From an uncultured Gemmatimonadota bacterium (GTDB lineage: Bacteria > JAAXHH01), in NCBI GenBank assembly GCA_951812955.1, contig OX638340.1, positions 3,616,001-3,680,000 on the forward strand: 64,000 bases of DNA, written 5' to 3'. Numbering within the stretch: position 1 is the first letter of the stretch; the number at the start of each line of letters is the position of its first letter. The position numbers and the translations under genes were made by a program. Positions 1,654 through 22,227 of this stretch are shown here, piece by piece. The notes under the pieces are model-generated. The model made no database searches. It saw only the letters and a program-made list of their open reading frames with translations, and was not told the DNA's origin.

Positions 1654-1968
1654 GGCTTGATTGTCTTAAGGAGGTAACGCTGTCGTTCAGATATACGTAA
1701 CTTCCCGAAAAGAACGTTACGGTGTCGACGAAACACCGTGGAATAGCACACGATTGAAGGATTTGATGTATCCTATAAACTGAGTTGACCCCGTTTAGTA
1801 CGTATGAATTTTTGTACAACGAGGAGTGTTCGACACAACTCCAAGAAATGTGAATCTGTCTACAAACTGGTAATCTTGGTTTTATGTGCACCGGGTAAAG
1901 TCAGTCCGCGTGGGTATGACAGCGTTTATCGGAAAGCTCGGTCGTATGAGGATCAAGGAGTTGGCGTG

Positions 1969-2768
1969 ATGGCGAGAGTCCGAAAGTCAACTGCAATTGA
2001 ACGATTGCAGAGGTTGGTTGATGAGGCTTCAGAGCTGGATATGGAGGATGATAGCTCTCAGGAAGTTCAAAAATGGATACAGGACGTTTATACCGCTTTT
2101 ATCAACATATTCGGTGAGGATAGTTCTCAGTTTTCACGACTTCCGCAAAGTCACAAAACAACCCCAAGTGGGGTTCGTGAATACCTGAGATCAATGGTTT
2201 CCTGCGTCGCGTCTAGTCTCGATGAGATCAAGTACTTTCGGGAGGATGAAACAGAAACTGTGAAACAACCCTCAGAACAGGGTGACTTAAAAGCACCAGA
2301 TAAGGATTGTTACGACCAGGGATCGGCGACAAAAAAGTCTTTGTCGTTCATGGTCACGACGAGGCCGTCCTGCAGGCGGTTGCGAGATTTCTAGAAAAGC
2401 TGAAACTCGAACCAGTAATCCTGCACGAACAGGCGAATCAAGGCCGCACGATCATAGAGAAATTTGAGGATCATTCGGATGCGAGTTTTGCCGTGGTTCT
2501 GCTGACACCTGACGACATAGGCGCGGCCGTTACGGATAAGGCCGATCTACGGCACCGAGCTCGTCAGAACGTAATTCTCGAACTCGGATTCTTCATTGGG
2601 AAGTTGGGTCGCAACAGGGTCTGTGCTCTGAAATCGCGTTGTGTCGAAAATCCGTCGGACGTCGATGGGATGGTCTATATCAACCTCGACGAGCCAGATG
2701 CATGGAAGACCGGACTCGTGCGGGAGTTAATGGCAGCTGGTTTCGCCATCGACGCTAACTGGGTTTAG
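1969..2768 (+). pseudogene. TIR-like (COG4271 / CAP12-Pycsar-effector-type) nucleotide-binding protein split into two overlapping frames (1969-2394 and 2307-2768); either frameshifted or -1 recoded
   Basis: ORF1 starts at ATG 1969 with AGGAG 8 nt upstream and encodes a helical N-domain. ORF2 in the -1 frame reads KKVFVVHGHDEAVLQAVARFLEKL...FAVVLLTPDD...RARQNVILELGFFIGKLGRNRVCAL, which is the TIR-like domain pattern. The frames overlap by 88 nt and can be joined at A AAA AAG (2331-2337) to give a protein of about 266 aa. Confidence 0.6.
2331..2337 (+). promoter_or_regulatory. Candidate -1 ribosomal frameshift heptamer A AAA AAG, or an A6 homopolymer indel site
   Basis: In the ORF1 frame the codons are acA AAA AAG. 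An SD-like AGGGA sits at 2318-2322. An imperfect hairpin TTGTCGT-N8-ACGACGA sits at 2341-2362. This layout resembles the E. coli dnaX signal. Confidence 0.3.
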
Positions 2769-2773
2769 CAGCC

Positions 2774-3079
2774 ATGAACGCACAGTTGTCGATTTCCAAA
2801 ACCGAATTGTCAGCCTATTGTAAAAATCATGGCATCCGACGATTAGCAATTTTCGGATCGGTGCTCCGGCCAGATTTTGGCCCGGAGAGCGATATCGACG
2901 TACTGGTCGAGTTCGCACCGAGTCACACTCCCGGTCTGCTGGGCATGGCCGGATTGGAGATTGAACTATCCGAATTGTTTGGCGGTCGGAAGGTGGACCT
3001 GCGGACTCCTGAGGAATTGAGTCGTTATTTTCGACAGAAGGTCATTGACACGGCAGAAGTTCTATATGTGCAGGGATGA
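2774..3079 (+). CDS. mntA: MntA-type minimal nucleotidyltransferase (antitoxin of the HepT/MntA type VII TA)
   Basis: It has the NTase motif LAIFGSVLRPDFGPESDIDVLVEF and is 101 aa long. It starts 5 nt after the TIR-like ORF stop. Confidence 0.8.
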   Translation: MNAQLSISKTELSAYCKNHGIRRLAIFGSVLRPDFGPESDIDVLVEFAPSHTPGLLGMAGLEIELSELFGGRKVDLRTPEELSRYFRQKVIDTAEVLYVQG

Positions 3080-3188
3080 CGAAATCCCATTACAGCACAT
3101 GTTGGACGCCGAGCGGGAGGCAGTGTGTTTTTCACGAGGACACAGTTGGTTGCAGCCGCTAAGTCAAGCCTACCATATCGCGCGTGAA
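3066..3188 (+). pseudogene. hepT: Truncated hepT (DUF86 RNase toxin) remnant, first ~40 codons only
   Basis: The ORF overlaps the mntA stop, as in intact pairs. It reads MCRDDEIPLQHMLDAEREAVCFSRGHS, which resembles HepT N-termini, then stops at 3188. The C-terminal Rx4HxY region is absent, and the vapC 3' end overlaps it. Confidence 0.5.
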
Positions 3189-3550
3189 TAGTAATCCAGG
3201 ATGGTGGTGTCCGAAGTCACGAGCAGGCATTTGTTCAATTTGGCCGTGGCCACGATCGTGCGGTCGACAGGATCCCGGTGATCCCAGTCCAGTTCGAGAT
3301 TCCCAATCCATGTCCGCACGTCCACTGGACGTACTTCAATCCGTTCGGTCCGTTCCAGATTTTATGCGAAGTCCTGAATGGACAGGGGCAACACAAGATC
3401 GGCCTTTTTCACCCTAACGCCGATCTCCCAGATCGAGATCGAACTGATGCACACGCGGTCGGCTTGTGTAATCGTCTGGTCGTCGATTTTGGACAGGCGT
3501 TCGGGATCCAGTGTCCAGAAAACAAGCGCGGACGTATCCAGTACGACCAT
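3170..3550 (-). pseudogene. vapC: PIN-domain toxin VapC interrupted by an in-frame TAA
   Basis: The N-part reads MVVLDTSALVFW...ISSISIWEI. A TAA lies at 3362-3364 (minus strand). The same frame then continues ...DWDHRDPVDRTIVATAKLNKCLLVTSDTTILDYY to a TAG at 3170-3172. Total is 127 codons including both stops. Confidence 0.7.
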
Positions 3551-3780
3551 TACGTTTCATCCCATTCGTCGATTGTCGGTGTGTCGATGTCTCCATGATA
3601 GACGATCTTTCCCCGCAGTCCATCGAAGATCCTGTCAACCGATTGCTTTGGCTTTATGGGTTTTACACTGAGAACTGGACTCCGGTTATGCGTTACGATC
3701 AGATCCTCGCCCGATTCCTCGATTTCTCGAAATACCCGAAGCATATTGGCCTTCAGCTTGCTCTTCGATTTGAACAGCAT
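3550..3780 (-). CDS. Phd/YefM-family antitoxin
   Basis: The 76-aa protein has KANMLRVFREIEESGEDLIVTHNRSPVLSV, typical of Phd/YefM. It has an ATGA-type overlap with the vapC start at 3550. Confidence 0.7.
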   Translation of the reverse strand: MLFKSKSKLKANMLRVFREIEESGEDLIVTHNRSPVLSVKPIKPKQSVDRIFDGLRGKIVYHGDIDTPTIDEWDET

Positions 3781-3950
3781 ATGGACTCCAGTCTGTTTAG
3801 TAAAAGACTATGGGCATGACCCTGGTTATATTCGAAGGATTTCCTATGAACCGTCAAGGATTTATCTCATTCTCGGCAACTTAGAAGTCGGATTCCGTGC
3901 GACTATTCCGACTGTATAGGTATGATGTTCAATTCAATGTGTAAGACAGG

Positions 3951-3979
3951 TTGACAATCGACGTCCCGACGTCTAATAT
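3951..3979 (+). promoter_or_regulatory. Sigma70-like promoter of the methyltransferase gene with two GACGTC palindromes in the spacer; predicts a leaderless mRNA
   Basis: TTGACA (3951-3956), a 17-nt spacer atcGACGTCccGACGTC, then TAATAT (3974-3979). The ATG at 3986 lies 7 nt after the -10 element. Confidence 0.5.
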
Positions 3980-3985
3980 TAAAAT

Positions 3986-5122
3986 ATGGCCACTAACACC
4001 GAAAGATACGCTCCTGGTCGAGTACGAGATGCGATAATCCGGGTGATGAGACTAACGACAGAAGGTTTGTCTGCTAAACAGATCGCAGCGAGAGTTGCAA
4101 AGATAGAGGGCCACATGCCTGAGTCCTCGATCAGGTCTTATCTTCGTCTGAACACTCCAGAGACATTTGTTCGTGAAAGGAGGGGGGTATACCGCCTTAA
4201 GGTAGATCATGACAGCAGTCTGCAACGAACGATGTTCAGGAGTCCACCTTGGCAGGAACCCTTCAAGTTTGGATCGGCTACATTGTTTCATAGTGAATGT
4301 TTGGATTGGCTGGACGCAAGAGATGACCAATCAATCCACGCGATAGTTACCGATCCACCTTACGGTCTGCAGGAATACACAGCGAAAGAGCAGACGAAAC
4401 TCCGAAATAGGAAGGGGGGGATCTGGAGGATTCCTCCTGCATTTGATGGCCACGTTCGTTCGCCGTTACCAAGATTCACTACTTTAACCGATGAACAAAA
4501 ACTTTATCTTCGGGAGTTTTTCTATATCTGGTCTCGTCTACTGATCCCCAAGTTGGTACCTGGCGCCAACGTGGTCGTTGCCTCCAATCCACTACTCTCC
4601 CACATTGTCGCCGGCGCTATAGCGGATTCGGGGCTTGAAAGACGCGGCGACATCGTCAGGCTTGTTATGACTATGCGTGGCGGTGATCGGCCAAAAGCGG
4701 CACATGATGAATTCAAGGACGTCAGTGTGCTCCCCAGATCAATGTGGGAGCCATGGCTGATATTCCGTAGGCCTGTGGAGGGAAGAGTACAGGACAACCT
4801 CAGAAAATGGAAAACGGGAGGGTTTCGACGGCCGACTGGACTCAAGCCATTCGGAGATGTTATTCAATCTTCCCCGACCAGAAAAAATGAGAAGGCGATA
4901 GCACCTCACCCCAGCCTTAAGCCACAATCCTTCTTACGACGCCTCGTGAGGGGTGTTCTTCCACTAGGTGAGGGTATAGTTGTCGATCCCTTTGCCGGCG
5001 CTGGCTCTACTCTCGCGGCCGCTGAAGCAGTTGGGTACGAGTCAATCGGAATAGAAAAGGATTCTCTGTACTTCAATATGGCCAAGGAAGCACTACAGCC
5101 ACTAGCCGAGCTCGAAGTGTAG
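3986..5122 (+). CDS. Beta-class DNA methyltransferase (N6-adenine or N4-cytosine) with an N-terminal winged-helix-like domain
   Basis: Motif IV is IVTDPPYG. Motif I, VVDPFAGAGSTLAAAE, lies near the C-terminus (order IV...I means beta class). The N-terminal ~80 aa, GLSAKQIAARVAKIEG...SIRSYL, look like an HTH. Confidence 0.85.
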   Translation: MATNTERYAPGRVRDAIIRVMRLTTEGLSAKQIAARVAKIEGHMPESSIRSYLRLNTPETFVRERRGVYRLKVDHDSSLQRTMFRSPPWQEPFKFGSATLFHSECLDWLDARDDQSIHAIVTDPPYGLQEYTAKEQTKLRNRKGGIWRIPPAFDGHVRSPLPRFTTLTDEQKLYLREFFYIWSRLLIPKLVPGANVVVASNPLLSHIVAGAIADSGLERRGDIVRLVMTMRGGDRPKAAHDEFKDVSVLPRSMWEPWLIFRRPVEGRVQDNLRKWKTGGFRRPTGLKPFGDVIQSSPTRKNEKAIAPHPSLKPQSFLRRLVRGVLPLGEGIVVDPFAGAGSTLAAAEAVGYESIGIEKDSLYFNMAKEALQPLAELEV

Positions 5123-5141
5123 GGACTGAAGGAATCCTCAA

Positions 5142-5672
5142 TTACCTGTCTAGGTAAATCCAGTTCTCGCGAAGTTTACTCACGCCAAAGCGGTCAAGTG
5201 TGGCAGTTCGTGTGCCGAGTTCCCCTCTCGGATTGCGTCTAAAGTCTTCGATGGTTACCCTAGATAGGTAGACTTCCCTAAACGTCATTGGAAGTCTTGA
5301 TGAAGAGGGTTCGGTTTTGTTATCGACCTCGTATACAAATACACACATCCACTGGTCGCGCGCGCCATGTGTATCGACCGCACCGCCTTTTTTCTTCGTG
5401 GTTTTGATTTCAAGACCCTGATCTCCCGACTTAACGGAGTTTTCTGCGTAAACTCCCTGAACGAGAAGGTCAGGATGGCCATTGAAGTAGTTGTTTTCAG
5501 TAAGCACCCTTGAATGTTTAGCCAGACTGGCCGTCAGCATGTCCGATAGCACACCAGACATGATAGCGGGTCTCAACATATCGTCAAGCCGTTCCAGTCC
5601 GCGGTCTACCAGATGAGAATTGACATCGTGGAAGAAATCATAAACGTCCTGCATTGCCGACTCGAAATCCAT
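5142..5672 (-). CDS. Putative type II restriction endonuclease (PD-(D/E)xK-like)
   Basis: It is convergent with the MTase and 19 nt apart. The candidate catalytic core is GHPDLLVQ...GLEIKTTKKK. Family not recognised. Confidence 0.45.
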   Translation of the reverse strand: MDFESAMQDVYDFFHDVNSHLVDRGLERLDDMLRPAIMSGVLSDMLTASLAKHSRVLTENNYFNGHPDLLVQGVYAENSVKSGDQGLEIKTTKKKGGAVDTHGARDQWMCVFVYEVDNKTEPSSSRLPMTFREVYLSRVTIEDFRRNPRGELGTRTATLDRFGVSKLRENWIYLDR

Positions 5673-5864
5673 AATGCGGAGCTGATATGGTAAAGTCGAG
5701 TCAGGATTGAATGATTCTCTTACTACGACATTTCTGGATTGTTTGATCCGTTCGTCTCCTTCATGTTATCTGAATGCATGTTTCAACAAAATGTGATTTA
5801 CTGTGAATTTGTAAACCACTACCTACAATATCATGACCTAGAATCTCATGAAAGTAAAATCAAT

Positions 5865-7019
5865 CTATTCCTCCACGGCCCGCAGATCCAGCGCCAGGTC
5901 GCGGAAGCTCCGCACGCGGTGTAGGGTGACCAGGTTGGTGTCGTGCTGGTTCTTGCCGCCGCGCGCGGTGCGGGCGACGACGAGTAGATCGTCTCCGGAG
6001 ATGACCTGCGAGGCGTAGCTGAAGGACTCCATAATGCTCCTGCTCATGGCCACGCATCCGGCCTGGAACCAGTTGAGGGCGTCCATGCTGTACATAAGCA
6101 TTAGGATACGCCGCTCGTTTCCCGGCGGTCCGCTGAAACCGATTCGCCGAAGGGGTTCCCGGTCCTGCCACGGGTTCGTGGACAGGGTCACCGTGGTCCA
6201 GTAGAGACCGCCTTTATCGTCGTGGACGATCTGAAACTTGCACTGGGCGCCCGGCATGGGGTGGAACTGGAGGAAACGGTAGTCGAGGTTCCGACCGTCG
6301 TCCTCGACCCGTCCGATTGATGCCAGGCTCGACGTCGTGTGGCCATCGACGATCGTGCGCATGACCATCCGGATCTCGCCGTCCACCAGCACGATGTTGC
6401 CCTCCAGGAAGCTGTCGGCCGGCACCTTGTCCTTCAGGCTTTCGGGATATTTCCGCTGCGAGAGCACATCGGGGATACCAGGAAACCGGACGTGATTGGA
6501 CATGCGCCAGGCCGCCGGATCCAGGAGGTCTCGCGCCAGGTCGCCGGCCACCACCAGCGACTTCCAGTCGAAACGGCTGGGCGCGTCGCAGGTCTCGAAG
6601 GCGCGGTAGGCATGCCCGTTGTGGATCAATACCGGCGTCGGTGCGCAGTGGTGCTTCCCTTCGAAGAGCGTGACCGGCCCTTCCCAGGTGAAGCCGCCGT
6701 CCCGGGAGCGGCCGATGACGATGTCCCGGCTTTTGCGCTTGTTTCCGATGAGATAGGCGTCGTCCCCGTAGGCCCAGACGGTCGCCCAGATGAAATCCTG
6801 GCACGACGCGAGGGTCCACGTTGCGCCGTCGTCGTCACTGACCAGTACCTCGGTCTGATCCGGCACGGATTCCTTGAGCGGACTGGGACGGAACCATTCG
6901 TAACTGGCCAGCAGGCGTCCCGAGCGCATCCGCGCGATCGACGGTGAACCGGCGTATACGTTCTCCGGGTCGGGTGACGAGGCCAGTACCTGGTAGTCTT
7001 TGGCGAGCATTCGATTCAT
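5865..7019 (-). CDS. BNR-repeat / sialidase-like beta-propeller protein, no signal peptide
   Basis: It has Asp-box motifs SDDDGATW and SRDGGFTW. The N-terminus is not hydrophobic. Confidence 0.6.
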   Translation of the reverse strand: MNRMLAKDYQVLASSPDPENVYAGSPSIARMRSGRLLASYEWFRPSPLKESVPDQTEVLVSDDDGATWTLASCQDFIWATVWAYGDDAYLIGNKRKSRDIVIGRSRDGGFTWEGPVTLFEGKHHCAPTPVLIHNGHAYRAFETCDAPSRFDWKSLVVAGDLARDLLDPAAWRMSNHVRFPGIPDVLSQRKYPESLKDKVPADSFLEGNIVLVDGEIRMVMRTIVDGHTTSSLASIGRVEDDGRNLDYRFLQFHPMPGAQCKFQIVHDDKGGLYWTTVTLSTNPWQDREPLRRIGFSGPPGNERRILMLMYSMDALNWFQAGCVAMSRSIMESFSYASQVISGDDLLVVARTARGGKNQHDTNLVTLHRVRSFRDLALDLRAVEE

Positions 7020-19235: not shown

Positions 19236-19533
19236 GGCGTTCTGATTATCGATGTCAGGAGTACGAATGCTCCTGCAATGGTACAGAGGCTACCGGTACC
19301 GTGTCAAGCAGGAATGAACCGTCTTTTTTGAAGGTGGTTTCGGCATGGAAGCCGCTGGTCTTGACAGCGTCCGGCACGCCGCTTAAGTTGCCTTCTGACG
19401 GTCATCGAAATGCGATCATCCAGGTCATTCAGTTCATTCCGACCAGCTGAACAGCGTGCGCAATTCGGGCAGAAACTTCCGGTCCGTCGATTTCCCGTTA
19501 CCAATTTCGATTCTCAGTTTAAAGGTATTCTAT

Positions 19534-20283
19534 ATGTCCCACGCGCAACCCCTGAATGCCCAGCAGATCGCCTACTTCAAGCTAAACGGCTACCTGGTCC
19601 TGAAGAACGTTTTCGACGAGGGAACCCTGGAGGCATGGCGGCGGCAGATCTGGCGGGCGCTCGATGGCTGCCTCGAAGATCCCGCGACCTGGCCCAGGGA
19701 AACGAGCGGTCTAGACGGGTACGATTACGATCCGCCCGAATCGGCCCTTGTGCACCATCCACAGATGATGGCGATCATCGACCAGCTCAGCGGGGGAACT
19801 TTCGTCGCTGGCGACGGCATTCCGATCATTCGGTGGCCCGATCCAGGAAAGTCCTGGGAAATGCCCCAAACGGGACATATCGATGCCTACGGGGGACGCT
19901 GGCTGCCCTTCATGATCGGCGCGACGACCTACCTGTACGACGTGGAACCCGGCGGCGGAGCCTTGATCTACTGGCCGGGAAGCCACCACGCCGCTCACCG
20001 GTACTTTCTCGAGCATCCCTCGCATGTCGACGGCAGCTTCCTGGAGATCGAGGGGTTTTCGTGGGACGTGTTCTGCGACAACCCGGCCACCGGCGGCCAG
20101 GAGTTTACCGCGAAGGCCGGCGACGTGGTGCTCTGGCATGCCTACCTGACCCACAACGGATCGGAAAATACCAGTCATTCGCCGCGCTTCGCCCTCTTCG
20201 CACGCTGGAACCATGAGAAACACCTGGAGCAGTCCTTCAGATACGAGATCCCCGAGGATCTGTGGAAGTATTGGGCGGTGTGA
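19534..20283 (+). CDS. PhyH-family dioxygenase (paralog 4)
   Basis: It begins MSHAQPLNAQQIAYFKLNGYLVLKNVF. It has TGHIDAYG (HxD), GGGALIYWPGSH and a distal YLTHNGSEN. The ORF-track N-extension from 19456 looks non-coding. Confidence 0.75.
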   Translation: MSHAQPLNAQQIAYFKLNGYLVLKNVFDEGTLEAWRRQIWRALDGCLEDPATWPRETSGLDGYDYDPPESALVHHPQMMAIIDQLSGGTFVAGDGIPIIRWPDPGKSWEMPQTGHIDAYGGRWLPFMIGATTYLYDVEPGGGALIYWPGSHHAAHRYFLEHPSHVDGSFLEIEGFSWDVFCDNPATGGQEFTAKAGDVVLWHAYLTHNGSENTSHSPRFALFARWNHEKHLEQSFRYEIPEDLWKYWAV

Positions 20284-20452: not shown

Positions 20453-20863
20453 ATGAGCTCAGTACCGGAACCGGATCAAGAGGAAGATCTTATGGGGAAA
20501 ATCATGAATGATTCCGCGAGCGTATCCGTTTTCGAGGTCGTTGGCAACGCTCTTTGCGTTGCTTCCGACGACGGCCAGAGAGTACACGACCGACTTTCGA
20601 CTGCATTGAAGGATAGCCGCCATGTGAATCTTTCTTTTCGCAACGTGACATCGCTTACTTCGGCTTTTCTGAACACCGCGGTCGGCCAATTGTATGGAAC
20701 CTTCAGCGAAGATCATATACGTACGCAGTTGAACATCGAAGAAATGTCCCTGGATGATCTGGTGTTACTCGAGCGTGTGGTCGACACAGCGAAGCAATAC
20801 TTCAAAGACCCTCAAAGATTCGAACAAGCGCTTCGTGAGGAAATGGATGACTATGACGACTGA
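20453..20863 (+). CDS. STAS-like domain protein (DUF4325-type)
   Basis: The pattern GQRVHDRLSTALKDSRHVNLSFRNVTSLTSAFLNTAVGQLYG matches what I recall for DUF4325 (x-V-x-LDF-x-GV...SSF). It has an acidic C-terminus. Confidence 0.5.
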   Translation: MSSVPEPDQEEDLMGKIMNDSASVSVFEVVGNALCVASDDGQRVHDRLSTALKDSRHVNLSFRNVTSLTSAFLNTAVGQLYGTFSEDHIRTQLNIEEMSLDDLVLLERVVDTAKQYFKDPQRFEQALREEMDDYDD

Positions 20864-21395
20864 TTCCAAGGCGCTCGCGGTGAATGAACACGAATTCAGT
20901 CGTAGAGATAGGTTGTTTCTTGATACTAATATCTGGTTGTATCTATTCGGTCCGCATAAACCCAAGGCAAGAGCGATCGACACGTATTCAAGTGTGCTTA
21001 AGCGGATTCTGGATGCGGGTAGCAGAATCTATATCGACGTTCTGATCGTTTCAGAGTTCATCAACGCATGCGCCAGGTTGAATTGGCATCTTGCAACAAA
21101 CAGGAAAATTGGTTTCAAAGCATTTCGAAATTCGTCATCTTTCAAATCAGTCGCCAGGTCGGTGTCAAGCGACGCCGCGCGGGTTATGTCCCACTGCTTG
21201 CGTGTGGAAAGTGGATTCTCGGACATGGCCGCGACCGAATTGCTCAATGAATTTGTCACCGGAAAATGCGACTTCAACGATCAAGTTATCATAAGACTCT
21301 GTAAAAAAGAAGAACTAACCCTGATTACACACGACGCCGATTTCAAAGGCGCGGGGATTCCGATTTTGACAGCGAACCATCGTCTTCTGAACTAA
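20847..21395 (+). CDS. PIN-domain nuclease (VapC-like)
   Basis: It overlaps the upstream gene by 17 nt (or 11 nt if it starts at 20853). The acidic triad candidates are LFLDTNIWLYLF, VLIVSEFINA and LITHDADF. Confidence 0.65.
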   Translation: MTMTTDSKALAVNEHEFSRRDRLFLDTNIWLYLFGPHKPKARAIDTYSSVLKRILDAGSRIYIDVLIVSEFINACARLNWHLATNRKIGFKAFRNSSSFKSVARSVSSDAARVMSHCLRVESGFSDMAATELLNEFVTGKCDFNDQVIIRLCKKEELTLITHDADFKGAGIPILTANHRLLN

Positions 21396-21399
21396 TCCC

Positions 21400-22227
21400 A
21401 TGCCCGCCTACCCCCGCTACCTCACCAAAGCTCAATTGGAGCAGTTCTGGTCCGACGGCTACCTGGTTTTGAAAGGCACGCTGGATCAAGAAGTGGTAGA
21501 AAAAGCCCGCGAATTCCTGCTGGACCTGATCCCGCGGGACCTGGTCATCCCGGACCACTACCACGCGAACCACGGCCGGTTCAAGCCCCACCACCCCGAC
21601 GGGAATGGCAGCTTTTTTGAACCTGCGATGCTGCCCCTGATGCAGAACGAAGCACTTTACGGCGCTGCCGTGGATATACTGGAGACAGAATACATCCGGG
21701 TGTGGGACGGTTCGGCGGGGATAACGCTAAGAAACCGCGCCATGGAAGGACGGCTCCAGAACCTCCACCTCGACGCTGTACCGGGAGGGCCCGAAGACCT
21801 GAATGAGGGGTTCCTTCGCACGGGAATAGGTATCGGCGGATGTTATTACCTGAACAAGGTTGAAGGTGAGGGCGGCGGCATCCACGTGGTTCCCGGCGGG
21901 CCGAACCGGGTGAGGGATATCATGCTTAACGAACCGGACGGTCTGACGCGCAACAACGGCTGGGGTCATATCACCGATTTTTCGTCGTCCATGGAGGTAA
22001 CCGGTGATGCCGGCGATTTCGTGCTGATGCATCACCTGATGCCCCACTCGGCCAGCGCCAATCACAACGCCGCGCCACGGATCGCCCAGTTCACCCGTCT
22101 GCAGGCCCTGACGGACGATGACGCCCGCCTCGCTCCGGGTCCCGACCGACCCCTGGACCCCGCAGCGCTTGGCGCCCTGACACCCCTGGGACGCAAACTG
22201 TTCCGCCTGGCCCCGTGGATCGGGTAA
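21400..22227 (+). CDS. PhyH-family dioxygenase (paralog 5)
   Basis: It has LTKAQLEQFWSDGYLVLKG, NLHLDAV (HxD), GGGIHVVPGG and a distal LMPHSASAN. Confidence 0.7.
   Translation: MPAYPRYLTKAQLEQFWSDGYLVLKGTLDQEVVEKAREFLLDLIPRDLVIPDHYHANHGRFKPHHPDGNGSFFEPAMLPLMQNEALYGAAVDILETEYIRVWDGSAGITLRNRAMEGRLQNLHLDAVPGGPEDLNEGFLRTGIGIGGCYYLNKVEGEGGGIHVVPGGPNRVRDIMLNEPDGLTRNNGWGHITDFSSSMEVTGDAGDFVLMHHLMPHSASANHNAAPRIAQFTRLQALTDDDARLAPGPDRPLDPAALGALTPLGRKLFRLAPWIG

Follow-up and report, generated by a model that had tools for sequence, protein, structure and literature searches.

Probable killer-first erosion of separately acquired toxin–antitoxin and defence cassettes at an accessory-gene hotspot of sponge-symbiont genomes

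Toxin–antitoxin (TA) genes of Photorhabdus are gained repeatedly at small permissive intervals between conserved genes and are lost there either through deletion of the whole system or because the toxin gene decays to a pseudogene. The TA pseudogenisations counted in these genomes comprised 185 toxin-only, 186 both-gene and 8 antitoxin-only cases; the antitoxin is very rarely lost on its own (Belot et al. 2026, PMC13617665). HepT/MntA (HEPN/MNT), such as SO_3166/SO_3165 of Shewanella oneidensis, is a type VII TA system in which mntA lies upstream of hepT and overlaps it, MntA carrying the motif GSX10DXD and HepT the motif Rx4HxY (Yao et al. 2020, PMC7641770). PDC candidates, among them PDC-S35 and PDC-S09, are activity-untested genes defined by "guilt-by-embedding" in other defence systems (Payne et al. 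2024, bioRxiv 10.1101/2024.01.29.577857). An enrichment of restriction-modification (R-M) and TA genes in sponge symbionts has also been reported (PMC5649159, PMC8163846). Here we analyzed positions 1654–5864 of a 64-kb window of DNA (64,000 nucleotides) from an uncultured Gemmatimonadota bacterium, in which a TIR effector gene, an mntA–hepT pair, a phd–vapC pair and a type II R-M pair lie between a cupin gene and a BNR/sialidase-like gene. This stretch is probably the cargo of a clade-wide hotspot, made of three separately acquired cassettes that are eroding killer gene first. The spot shares its small permissive interval, its repeated TA gain and its modes of loss with those of Photorhabdus, and it differs from them in belonging to an uncultured sponge-symbiont clade, in having no visible recombinase, and in mixing TA genes with defence genes (TIR, R-M and others), which is uncommon in Photorhabdus (Belot et al. 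2026, PMC13617665). Toxin-first erosion is already documented, and the locus is an ordinary case of it that is unusually well replicated.

The G+C content of 1654–5864 is 0.489, compared with 0.608 for the rest of the 64-kb window (z = −7.95), and each of 539 other 4.2-kb windows has a G+C content of at least 0.569. G+C at third codon positions (GC3) is 0.43–0.68 in the island genes and 0.79–0.83 in the flanking genes used for comparison (permease, cupin, BNR-like, sulfite-oxidase-like and amidohydrolase). The original prediction, which was made from the letters of the window, had called this DNA AT-richer; the composition profile agrees, with a strong deviation (z about −8), and supports the view that the DNA is compositionally foreign. 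On the left, a non-coding spacer (1654–1968) extends from the cupin stop codon to the TIR start; its first part (1654–1767) is highly divergent from the sister genome L004, and a near-identical tract begins at about 1768–1812. On the right, an AT-rich spacer (5748–5864, G+C about 0.40) leads to the stop codon of the BNR-like gene. No tRNA was found in the 64-kb window, no integrase, transposase or other recombinase open reading frame (ORF) in 1654–5864, and only short chance matches as direct or inverted repeats flanking the interval, just as the prediction had stated for integrase, transposase, tRNA and direct repeats. The features of an integrase-mediated mobile genomic island are thus absent from 1654–5864.

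The BNR-like protein, used to scan species-representative genomes, retrieved 30 loci, about 20 of which are closely related sponge or coral metagenome-assembled genomes (MAGs) with the same flanking genes, i.e., the cupin core gene (1183–1653 in the window) on the left and the BNR/sialidase-like core gene (5865–7019) on the right. The MAGs of this clade are labelled Latescibacterota or Gemmatimonadota/Gemmatimonadetes. The interval between the two genes is empty (72–155 bp) in L018 and L020, which define the empty site that a syntenic comparison had been proposed to find. It holds phd–vapC alone in six genomes (L007, L008, L009, L011, L013 and L017), phd–vapC together with mntA and an intact or broken hepT in L014 and L016, phd–vapC together with a methyltransferase (MTase) gene lacking its nuclease in L015, and a set like that of the window in L004, L031 and, with hepT intact, L010. 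Other cargo includes a Schlafen (SLFN)/AlbA_2-HATPase protein, HicA/HicB, OLD-like and AAA_13 ATPases, a 1477-aa Mrr-helicase-MTase fusion, and IS3 transposases (L012). Judged from these arrangements, the BNR–cupin site behaves as a clade-wide accessory-gene hotspot. A HicB-like 70-aa gene was also seen in several variants (L001:13951-14163, L003:11430-11642, L005:12707-12919 and L002:11399-11725), and the HicA toxin gene (PF07927) was seen beside it only in L025 (L025:5722-6173); the HicB-like gene may be another surviving antitoxin.

The original prediction had favoured an old, horizontally acquired island. Its foreign origin stands, and its unity does not: the stretch reads as three cassettes that differ in age and phylogenetic distribution. 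The pair phd–vapC always adjoins the BNR-like gene in one orientation and is the most widespread occupant, and so the oldest resident. It is 62–77% identical across the clade, and the GC3 of vapC (0.68) is nearest to that of the host, compared with 0.43–0.58 for the TIR gene and 0.49–0.52 for the R-M genes. A single acquisition followed by decay as a unit could account for the uniformly low G+C across 1654–5864 and for the same four-part layout in L004, L031 and, except for its intact hepT, L010. It is nevertheless very unlikely, given that phd–vapC stands alone at the site in six genomes, that the presence of mntA–hepT, of the TIR gene and of the R-M pair varies independently between loci (L014, L016, L015 and L001), that the cassettes are sharply unlike in GC3 and in cross-clade identity, and that the R-M pair and TIR–mntA–hepT each occur as self-contained cassettes in unrelated contexts.

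The unrelated contexts of TIR–mntA–hepT were found at L048:1461-8262, L130:443-6810, L132:613-6840, L131:3001-4458 and L049:315-4771. In L048 and L130 the trio is nested between genes of an 846–853-aa N6_N4 MTase and a 932–937-aa ResIII protein; it is nested likewise in L132 but not in L131 (Paracoccaceae), and in L049 (Rhodospirillales) mntA and hepT are parted by some 3 kb of inserted DNA with an IS1595 transposase. The MTase/ResIII hosts are type III-like R-M systems, and embedding of the PDC-S35 relatives of L048, L130 and L132 between mod-like and res-like genes is the kind by which PDC candidates were defined. PDC-S35 and PDC-S09, to which the TIR and MntA parts correspond, are separate single-gene candidates in PADLOC. 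PDC-S35 is thus a single-gene candidate, whereas the subfamily of the window is tightly linked to mntA–hepT. No linked MntA/HepT was detected in 51 informative distant metagenome PDC-S35 loci with custom hidden Markov models (HMMs), for which a positive control worked, and the three-gene linkage is therefore subfamily-specific. We considered whether TIR(PDC-S35)–MntA–HepT is one integrated defence module in which MntA also restrains or regulates the TIR protein and is thus no orphan. In at least six unrelated contexts, three of which nest the trio in an R-M operon, its stop and start codons overlap, and each of the four or more independent losses of HepT left MntA intact. However, the 51 distant loci have no downstream MntA/HepT, and the TIR gene is missing from L014 and L016, where mntA occurs with or without hepT; such a module is quite unlikely.

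Within this trio, mntA (2774..3079, + strand) encodes an intact type VII antitoxin nucleotidyltransferase of 101 aa that matches PF18765 (2.7e-11) and PF01909 (5.4e-11), and its GSX10DXD motif reads GS-VLRPDFGPES-DID. With the NCBIfam MntA model it scored 39.5 bits, short of the cutoff of 60. In the window 5 nt separate the stop codon of the TIR gene from the mntA start, and elsewhere the two overlap. What follows mntA is a hepT remnant of about 26 codons from ATG 3066 (3066..3143, + strand), which an HMM built from HepT orthologues recovers at E 1e-7. The nominal ORF continues to TAG 3189-3191 through unrelated sequence that is antisense to vapC, and the region encoding Rx4HxY is deleted. Complete HepT proteins of 118–120 aa occur in L010, L014, L006 and L032, with the motif RNRL[VT]HAYF in the last three and RNRLVHANF in L010. 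The locus therefore resembles the Shewanella system in having mntA upstream of and overlapping hepT, in the GSX10DXD of MntA, and in the Rx4HxY shared by intact orthologous HepT (RNRLVHAYF); it differs in that hepT is cut to about 26 codons and the pair forms the tail of a three-gene unit headed by the TIR gene. The prediction of a truncated hepT beside an intact mntA was correct, except that it allowed about 40 codons, of which just these 26 or so are hepT and the remainder is read-through.

Compared with L010 and L014, about 350 bp are missing from the window, from hepT codon ~27 to its end together with the spacer up to the vapC stop codon, where homology resumes (junction 3144..3172). This is a simple deletion of about 350 bp between two convergent genes, by which hepT lost its 3' three-quarters. 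The original prediction had suggested instead that the phd–vapC cassette replaced the rest of hepT, on the ground that the vapC 3' end overlaps the hepT stump (3170–3188). An insertion of phd–vapC that overwrote hepT would have in its favour that the end of vapC adjoins the ORF of the stump and nominally shares 3170–3191 with it. Yet in 17 loci, those free of mntA/hepT among them, phd–vapC occupies this position beside the BNR-like gene in an unchanged orientation; complete hepT and vapC are convergent neighbours with a spacer in L010 and L014, as are the eroded hepT and vapC of L016; and the window departs from the L010/L014 arrangement by a clean deletion between the two genes. Since the difference is a plain deletion between convergent genes, replacement of hepT is rejected as extremely improbable. 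Of the alternative that had been offered alongside the old island, a hotspot with serial overwriting of cassettes, the hotspot survives as the variable BNR–cupin interval with its empty sites, and the overwriting of hepT by phd–vapC falls. Three more genomes lost hepT independently, L016 by an internal deletion and a stop codon, L031 by a start codon changed from ATG to ATA and a larger internal deletion, and L132, which lies outside the hotspot, by an internal deletion. All eight hotspot loci with an mntA gene retain it intact.

The second toxin gene, vapC (3170..3550, − strand), encodes a PIN domain that is recognised at 7e-15 when the stop codon is masked, and it is a pseudogene interrupted by TAA at 3362-3364 (codon 63). 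Sixteen orthologues are intact at 126 aa and have GAA or AAA (Glu/Lys) at this position. Other genomes damage the gene differently: L006 encodes E42V, S113P and D114N and has lost phd, L001 encodes D114N, and L003 keeps only a 3' remnant. The Phd/YefM-like antitoxin upstream has an intact ORF of 76 aa (3550..3780, − strand), as had been described together with the in-frame TAA, and its stop overlaps the vapC start by 4 nt (ATGA). PF02604 matches all 10 Phd orthologues below the gathering score (best 3.4e-5, window 0.046), and a profile search of the PDB with the Phd-like protein gave no match. The promoter/operator region of phd–vapC (3801..3859, − strand) contains a −35-like TTGACG within 3843–3859 and a degenerate tandem palindrome ATGACyATAGTCAT at 3801–3831. 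Orthologous promoters (L007:11180-11260 and its equivalents in L005, L009, L013, L014, L016, L025 and L031) have TTGACA and two ATGACyATAGTCAT copies overlapping the −10 region; the tandem palindrome is presumably the autoregulatory operator of the pair, and both repeats bear private substitutions in the window. The 4-nt antitoxin/toxin overlap, the PIN toxin with conserved acidic residues and, in the orthologues, the palindromic operator overlapping the promoter are shared with type II VapBC systems. The window differs in the nonsense codon of its toxin and in an antitoxin that is weakly Phd/YefM-like, below the Pfam threshold.

Whether these lesions are real was judged from independent assemblies. 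An exact-match look-up of the nuclease of the R-M pair retrieved contigs from NCBI, three JGI metagenomes, Logan and ENA, six of which cover the lesion sites. All six contain the vapC TAA and the identical hepT deletion, which are therefore real and shared with the sister lineage. For the lesions as a set, it is rather doubtful that they are sequencing or assembly artefacts hiding intact toxin genes: neither a ~350-bp deletion nor a transversion is a typical kind of error, and both recur in assemblies from four sources. The suspicion fits the TIR lesion best. This is a 1-nt indel beside a homopolymer, and none of the six other assemblies, whose islands are 99.6% identical to that of the window, has it. 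The same identity is seen with L004, where about 17 differences were counted in 1770–5880 (~4.1 kb, 0.4%), while the flanks differ by 3–6% over at least 5 kb on each side and the boundaries are sharp. The simplest reading is that the whole cargo was recently exchanged between the two lineages by recombination in conserved flanks, or else spread by a gene-specific sweep. Exchange through conserved flanks would explain the absence of mobility genes.

The TIR gene (1969..2768, + strand) is of PDC-S35 type, with an N-terminal helical domain and a CAP12/Pycsar-type TIR domain, and is split by a 1-nt deletion. Its zero frame (1969-2394) matches positions 4–103 of the 264 in the PADLOC PDC-S35 profile, and its −1 frame (2337-2768) matches PF10137 (CAP12/Pycsar TIR, 4e-40) and PDC-S35 positions 118–260. 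Both halves align to one profile, so this is a single split gene, as had been described. No cyclase or CD-NTase lies nearby, and the gene is thus not part of a CBASS or Pycsar system. The window lacks one C between 2330 and 2331, immediately before an A6 run whose length is unchanged, so that ACC AAA AAA GTC of L004 becomes ACA AAA AAG TC in the window; the stretch GCGACAAAAAAG is the knockout form and GCGACCAAAAAAG the in-frame form. The latter, with the TIR gene in frame, is present in all six other assemblies covering the site. The frameshift is private to the window, the six sister assemblies having the gene in frame, so it is not evidence of old decay, for which it had been taken; either the mutation is very recent or the assembly is in error here. 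More than 100 TIR homologues are single ORFs of 265–271 aa with the junction ...TKKVFVVHGH, whereas in the window the two halves of this ~265-aa architecture (N-terminal domain and PF10137) lie in different frames. Among the other loci, the gene is intact in L004, L031 and L032, has an internal deletion in L006, and in L010, a diverged orthologue, has independently lost 1 nt at the same A-tract.

The deletion leaves the slippery heptamer A_AAA_AAG in phase with the zero frame (2331..2337, + strand), in agreement with X_XXY_YYZ, and a −1 slip there would restore the L004 protein exactly. The allele may therefore be leaky, with no evidence of design. A functional switch, i.e., programmed −1 frameshifting or phase variation of the A-tract that would keep expression of a suicidal effector low or reversible, would suit this heptamer and the −1 shift that the L010 orthologue also needs at the same A6 tract. 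It is highly improbable in light of the family, in which over 100 homologues are in frame, L031 and L032 are in frame with no A-tract, and the six sister assemblies need no shift; moreover, the hairpin downstream of A_AAA_AAG is no stabler than shuffled sequence (z = 0.12). The A-run has equal length in all three sequences compared, so simple tract slippage is not the cause. Programmed frameshifting was accordingly downgraded, the family being in frame and no stable downstream structure being present. Two 148-aa "TIR-only" database proteins, P0060 and P0062, were also tried as cases of frameshifting and rejected, as they are internal-ATG gene calls in intact ORFs (L031:6001-6447 and L032:6001-6447, where the full 267–269-aa ORF is open). 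Short "TIR-only" database proteins can therefore be annotation artefacts. A literature search on the name PDC-S35 found nothing.

The R-M pair had been described as intact at 3986–5672, and its ORFs are, with a caveat on the start codon of the nuclease. The MTase (3986..5122, + strand) is a beta-class N6/N4 DNA methyltransferase of 378 aa, with DPPY before FxGxG (FAGAG in the sequence), and it matches PF01555 (2.1e-16) and PADLOC MTase_II (1.8e-100). A promoter-like TTGACA-17-TAATAT (3951..3979, + strand) ends 7 nt before its ATG. The convergent gene (5142..5747, − strand) encodes a putative restriction endonuclease (REase), of which the ATG-started ORF (5142-5672) gives 176 aa with HPDL...EIK. 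This protein had no match in Pfam, NCBIfam, PADLOC or the PDB in sequence and profile searches, and an AlphaFold model reached a pLDDT (predicted local distance difference test) of 47 from a shallow alignment of 79–100% identity. HPDL...E[IV]K, which is PD...ExK-like, is invariant in 25 homologues and consistent with a PD-(D/E)xK nuclease; the assignment is based on this motif and on conserved pairing with the MTase. In every context examined, the REase family is convergent with a 378–382-aa MTase among unrelated housekeeping genes. The window shares with type II R-M systems a pair of MTase and putative nuclease that is mobile as a two-gene unit into unrelated contexts. The REase is 79–91% identical across MAGs labelled Chloroflexi, Dehalococcoidia and Gemmatimonadetes, which implies very recent inter-phylum spread of the cassette. 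This unannotated family (window 5142-5672; P0121-P0240) has thousands of database members, many from sponges. In L015 the REase is deleted and the MTase kept, which, in terms of orphan MTases, is the R-M equivalent of toxin-first loss.

The caveat concerns the 25 codons upstream of ATG 5672, which are open and conserved at the protein level in six lineages. Across these codons the other two frames have stops in most lineages, about half of the differing codons are synonymous, and five of the six lineages have no canonical start (ATG, GTG or TTG). Most REase homologues start about 24 residues earlier, at Met. In the window an ATC (5745-5747) lies 8 nt after the Shine-Dalgarno sequence AAGGAG (5756-5761), and an ATC is found 7–8 nt after AAGGAG or GGGAGG in five of the six lineages (compared over 5673–5761 of the window, − strand, and in L001, L004, L010 and L031). 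It is a reasonable inference that translation of the REase begins at AUC, with low expression as the expected result, and the gene counts as intact with this reservation. Relative to described type II systems, the nuclease of this clade thus belongs to an unannotated family and lacks a canonical start for its conserved N-terminal 25 codons.

Across the clade, killer genes were lost repeatedly, the TIR gene three times, vapC several times and the REase once, in addition to hepT, and no catalytically intact toxin devoid of its partner was found among the loci compared. Such recurrent, independent loss of the killer gene with its partner kept supports toxin-first erosion. This part of the original prediction thus holds, with independent recurrence in related genomes for hepT, TIR, vapC and REase. 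The same prediction had suggested that the leftover antitoxins could serve against addiction. Selection for MntA and Phd as anti-addiction or immunity genes against incoming HepT/VapC elements might explain why both ORFs are intact and why mntA remains, with GSX10DXD kept, after at least four independent hepT losses. Intact antitoxin ORFs are also expected after recent toxin loss, however, and at sites where 6 orthologues are invariant the window MntA carries 8 private substitutions (others 0–5), the window Phd carrying 6 where 9 orthologues are invariant (others 0–3). The phd operator and promoter are eroded, and no further hepT or mntA exists elsewhere in the 64-kb window. Recruitment of this kind therefore appears unlikely, and the leftover antitoxins are most likely drifting, relaxed remnants.

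The following course would account for these observations. First, phd–vapC would have settled as the resident beside the BNR-like gene, a place that it has in most of the clade; TIR(PDC-S35)–mntA–hepT would have been acquired separately on the cupin side, and the convergent MTase/REase pair inserted between the BNR-like gene and phd. Cargo most likely entered and moved between lineages by homologous recombination via the conserved flanks. A cell that lost the antidote first would die, and surviving mutations would therefore hit the killer gene. In the lineage of the window, the hepT deletion and the vapC nonsense mutation, in either order and both common to the sister lineage, would have come first, followed by exchange or a sweep of the whole island between the two lineages, and then by the 1-nt TIR deletion in the window genome alone, be it real or an assembly error; the R-M pair is still intact.

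Several points weigh against this account. The activity of every gene is deduced from sequence. The TIR frameshift may be an assembly error, and then just two of the four killer genes are dead here. No entry mechanism is visible at the locus, as there is no integrase, transposase, tRNA or direct repeat, and recombination in the flanks comes from one pairwise comparison, which a mosaic MAG assembly of co-existing strains could mimic. The relaxed constraint on Phd and MntA is a matter of small counts. Residues E42, S113 and D114, which are substituted in the L006 and L001 VapC proteins, are taken here to be catalytic from general knowledge of PIN domains.

Despite these points, killer-first erosion of hotspot cargo remains our preferred reading, by which one spot in about 30 related uncultured genomes offers a natural experiment in repeated, independent inactivation of killer genes. 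Four kinds of killer are involved, i.e., a HEPN RNase, a PIN RNase, a TIR effector and a restriction nuclease, and the protective partner always survives; the pattern of TA erosion in Photorhabdus is thus extended to sponge symbionts and to defence genes. Counts of "defence systems" or "TA systems" in sponge-symbiont MAGs will consequently include many dead or half-dead cassettes, and an unreplicated single-base frameshift in one assembly should not be taken as decay. The recurrent TIR–MntA–HepT unit and the unannotated, widely shared nuclease family are modest leads.

Apart from this interval, a second dip in G+C (about 0.52–0.54) was seen at 20453–21395 of the window. It comprises a DUF4325/STAS-like gene (20453–20863) and a PIN-domain gene (20754–21395, whose true start is probably an internal ATG), inserted between PhyH-family paralogues (19456–20283 and 21400–22227). 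This DUF4325/STAS-like and PIN pair looks TA-like, and it appears to be intact.

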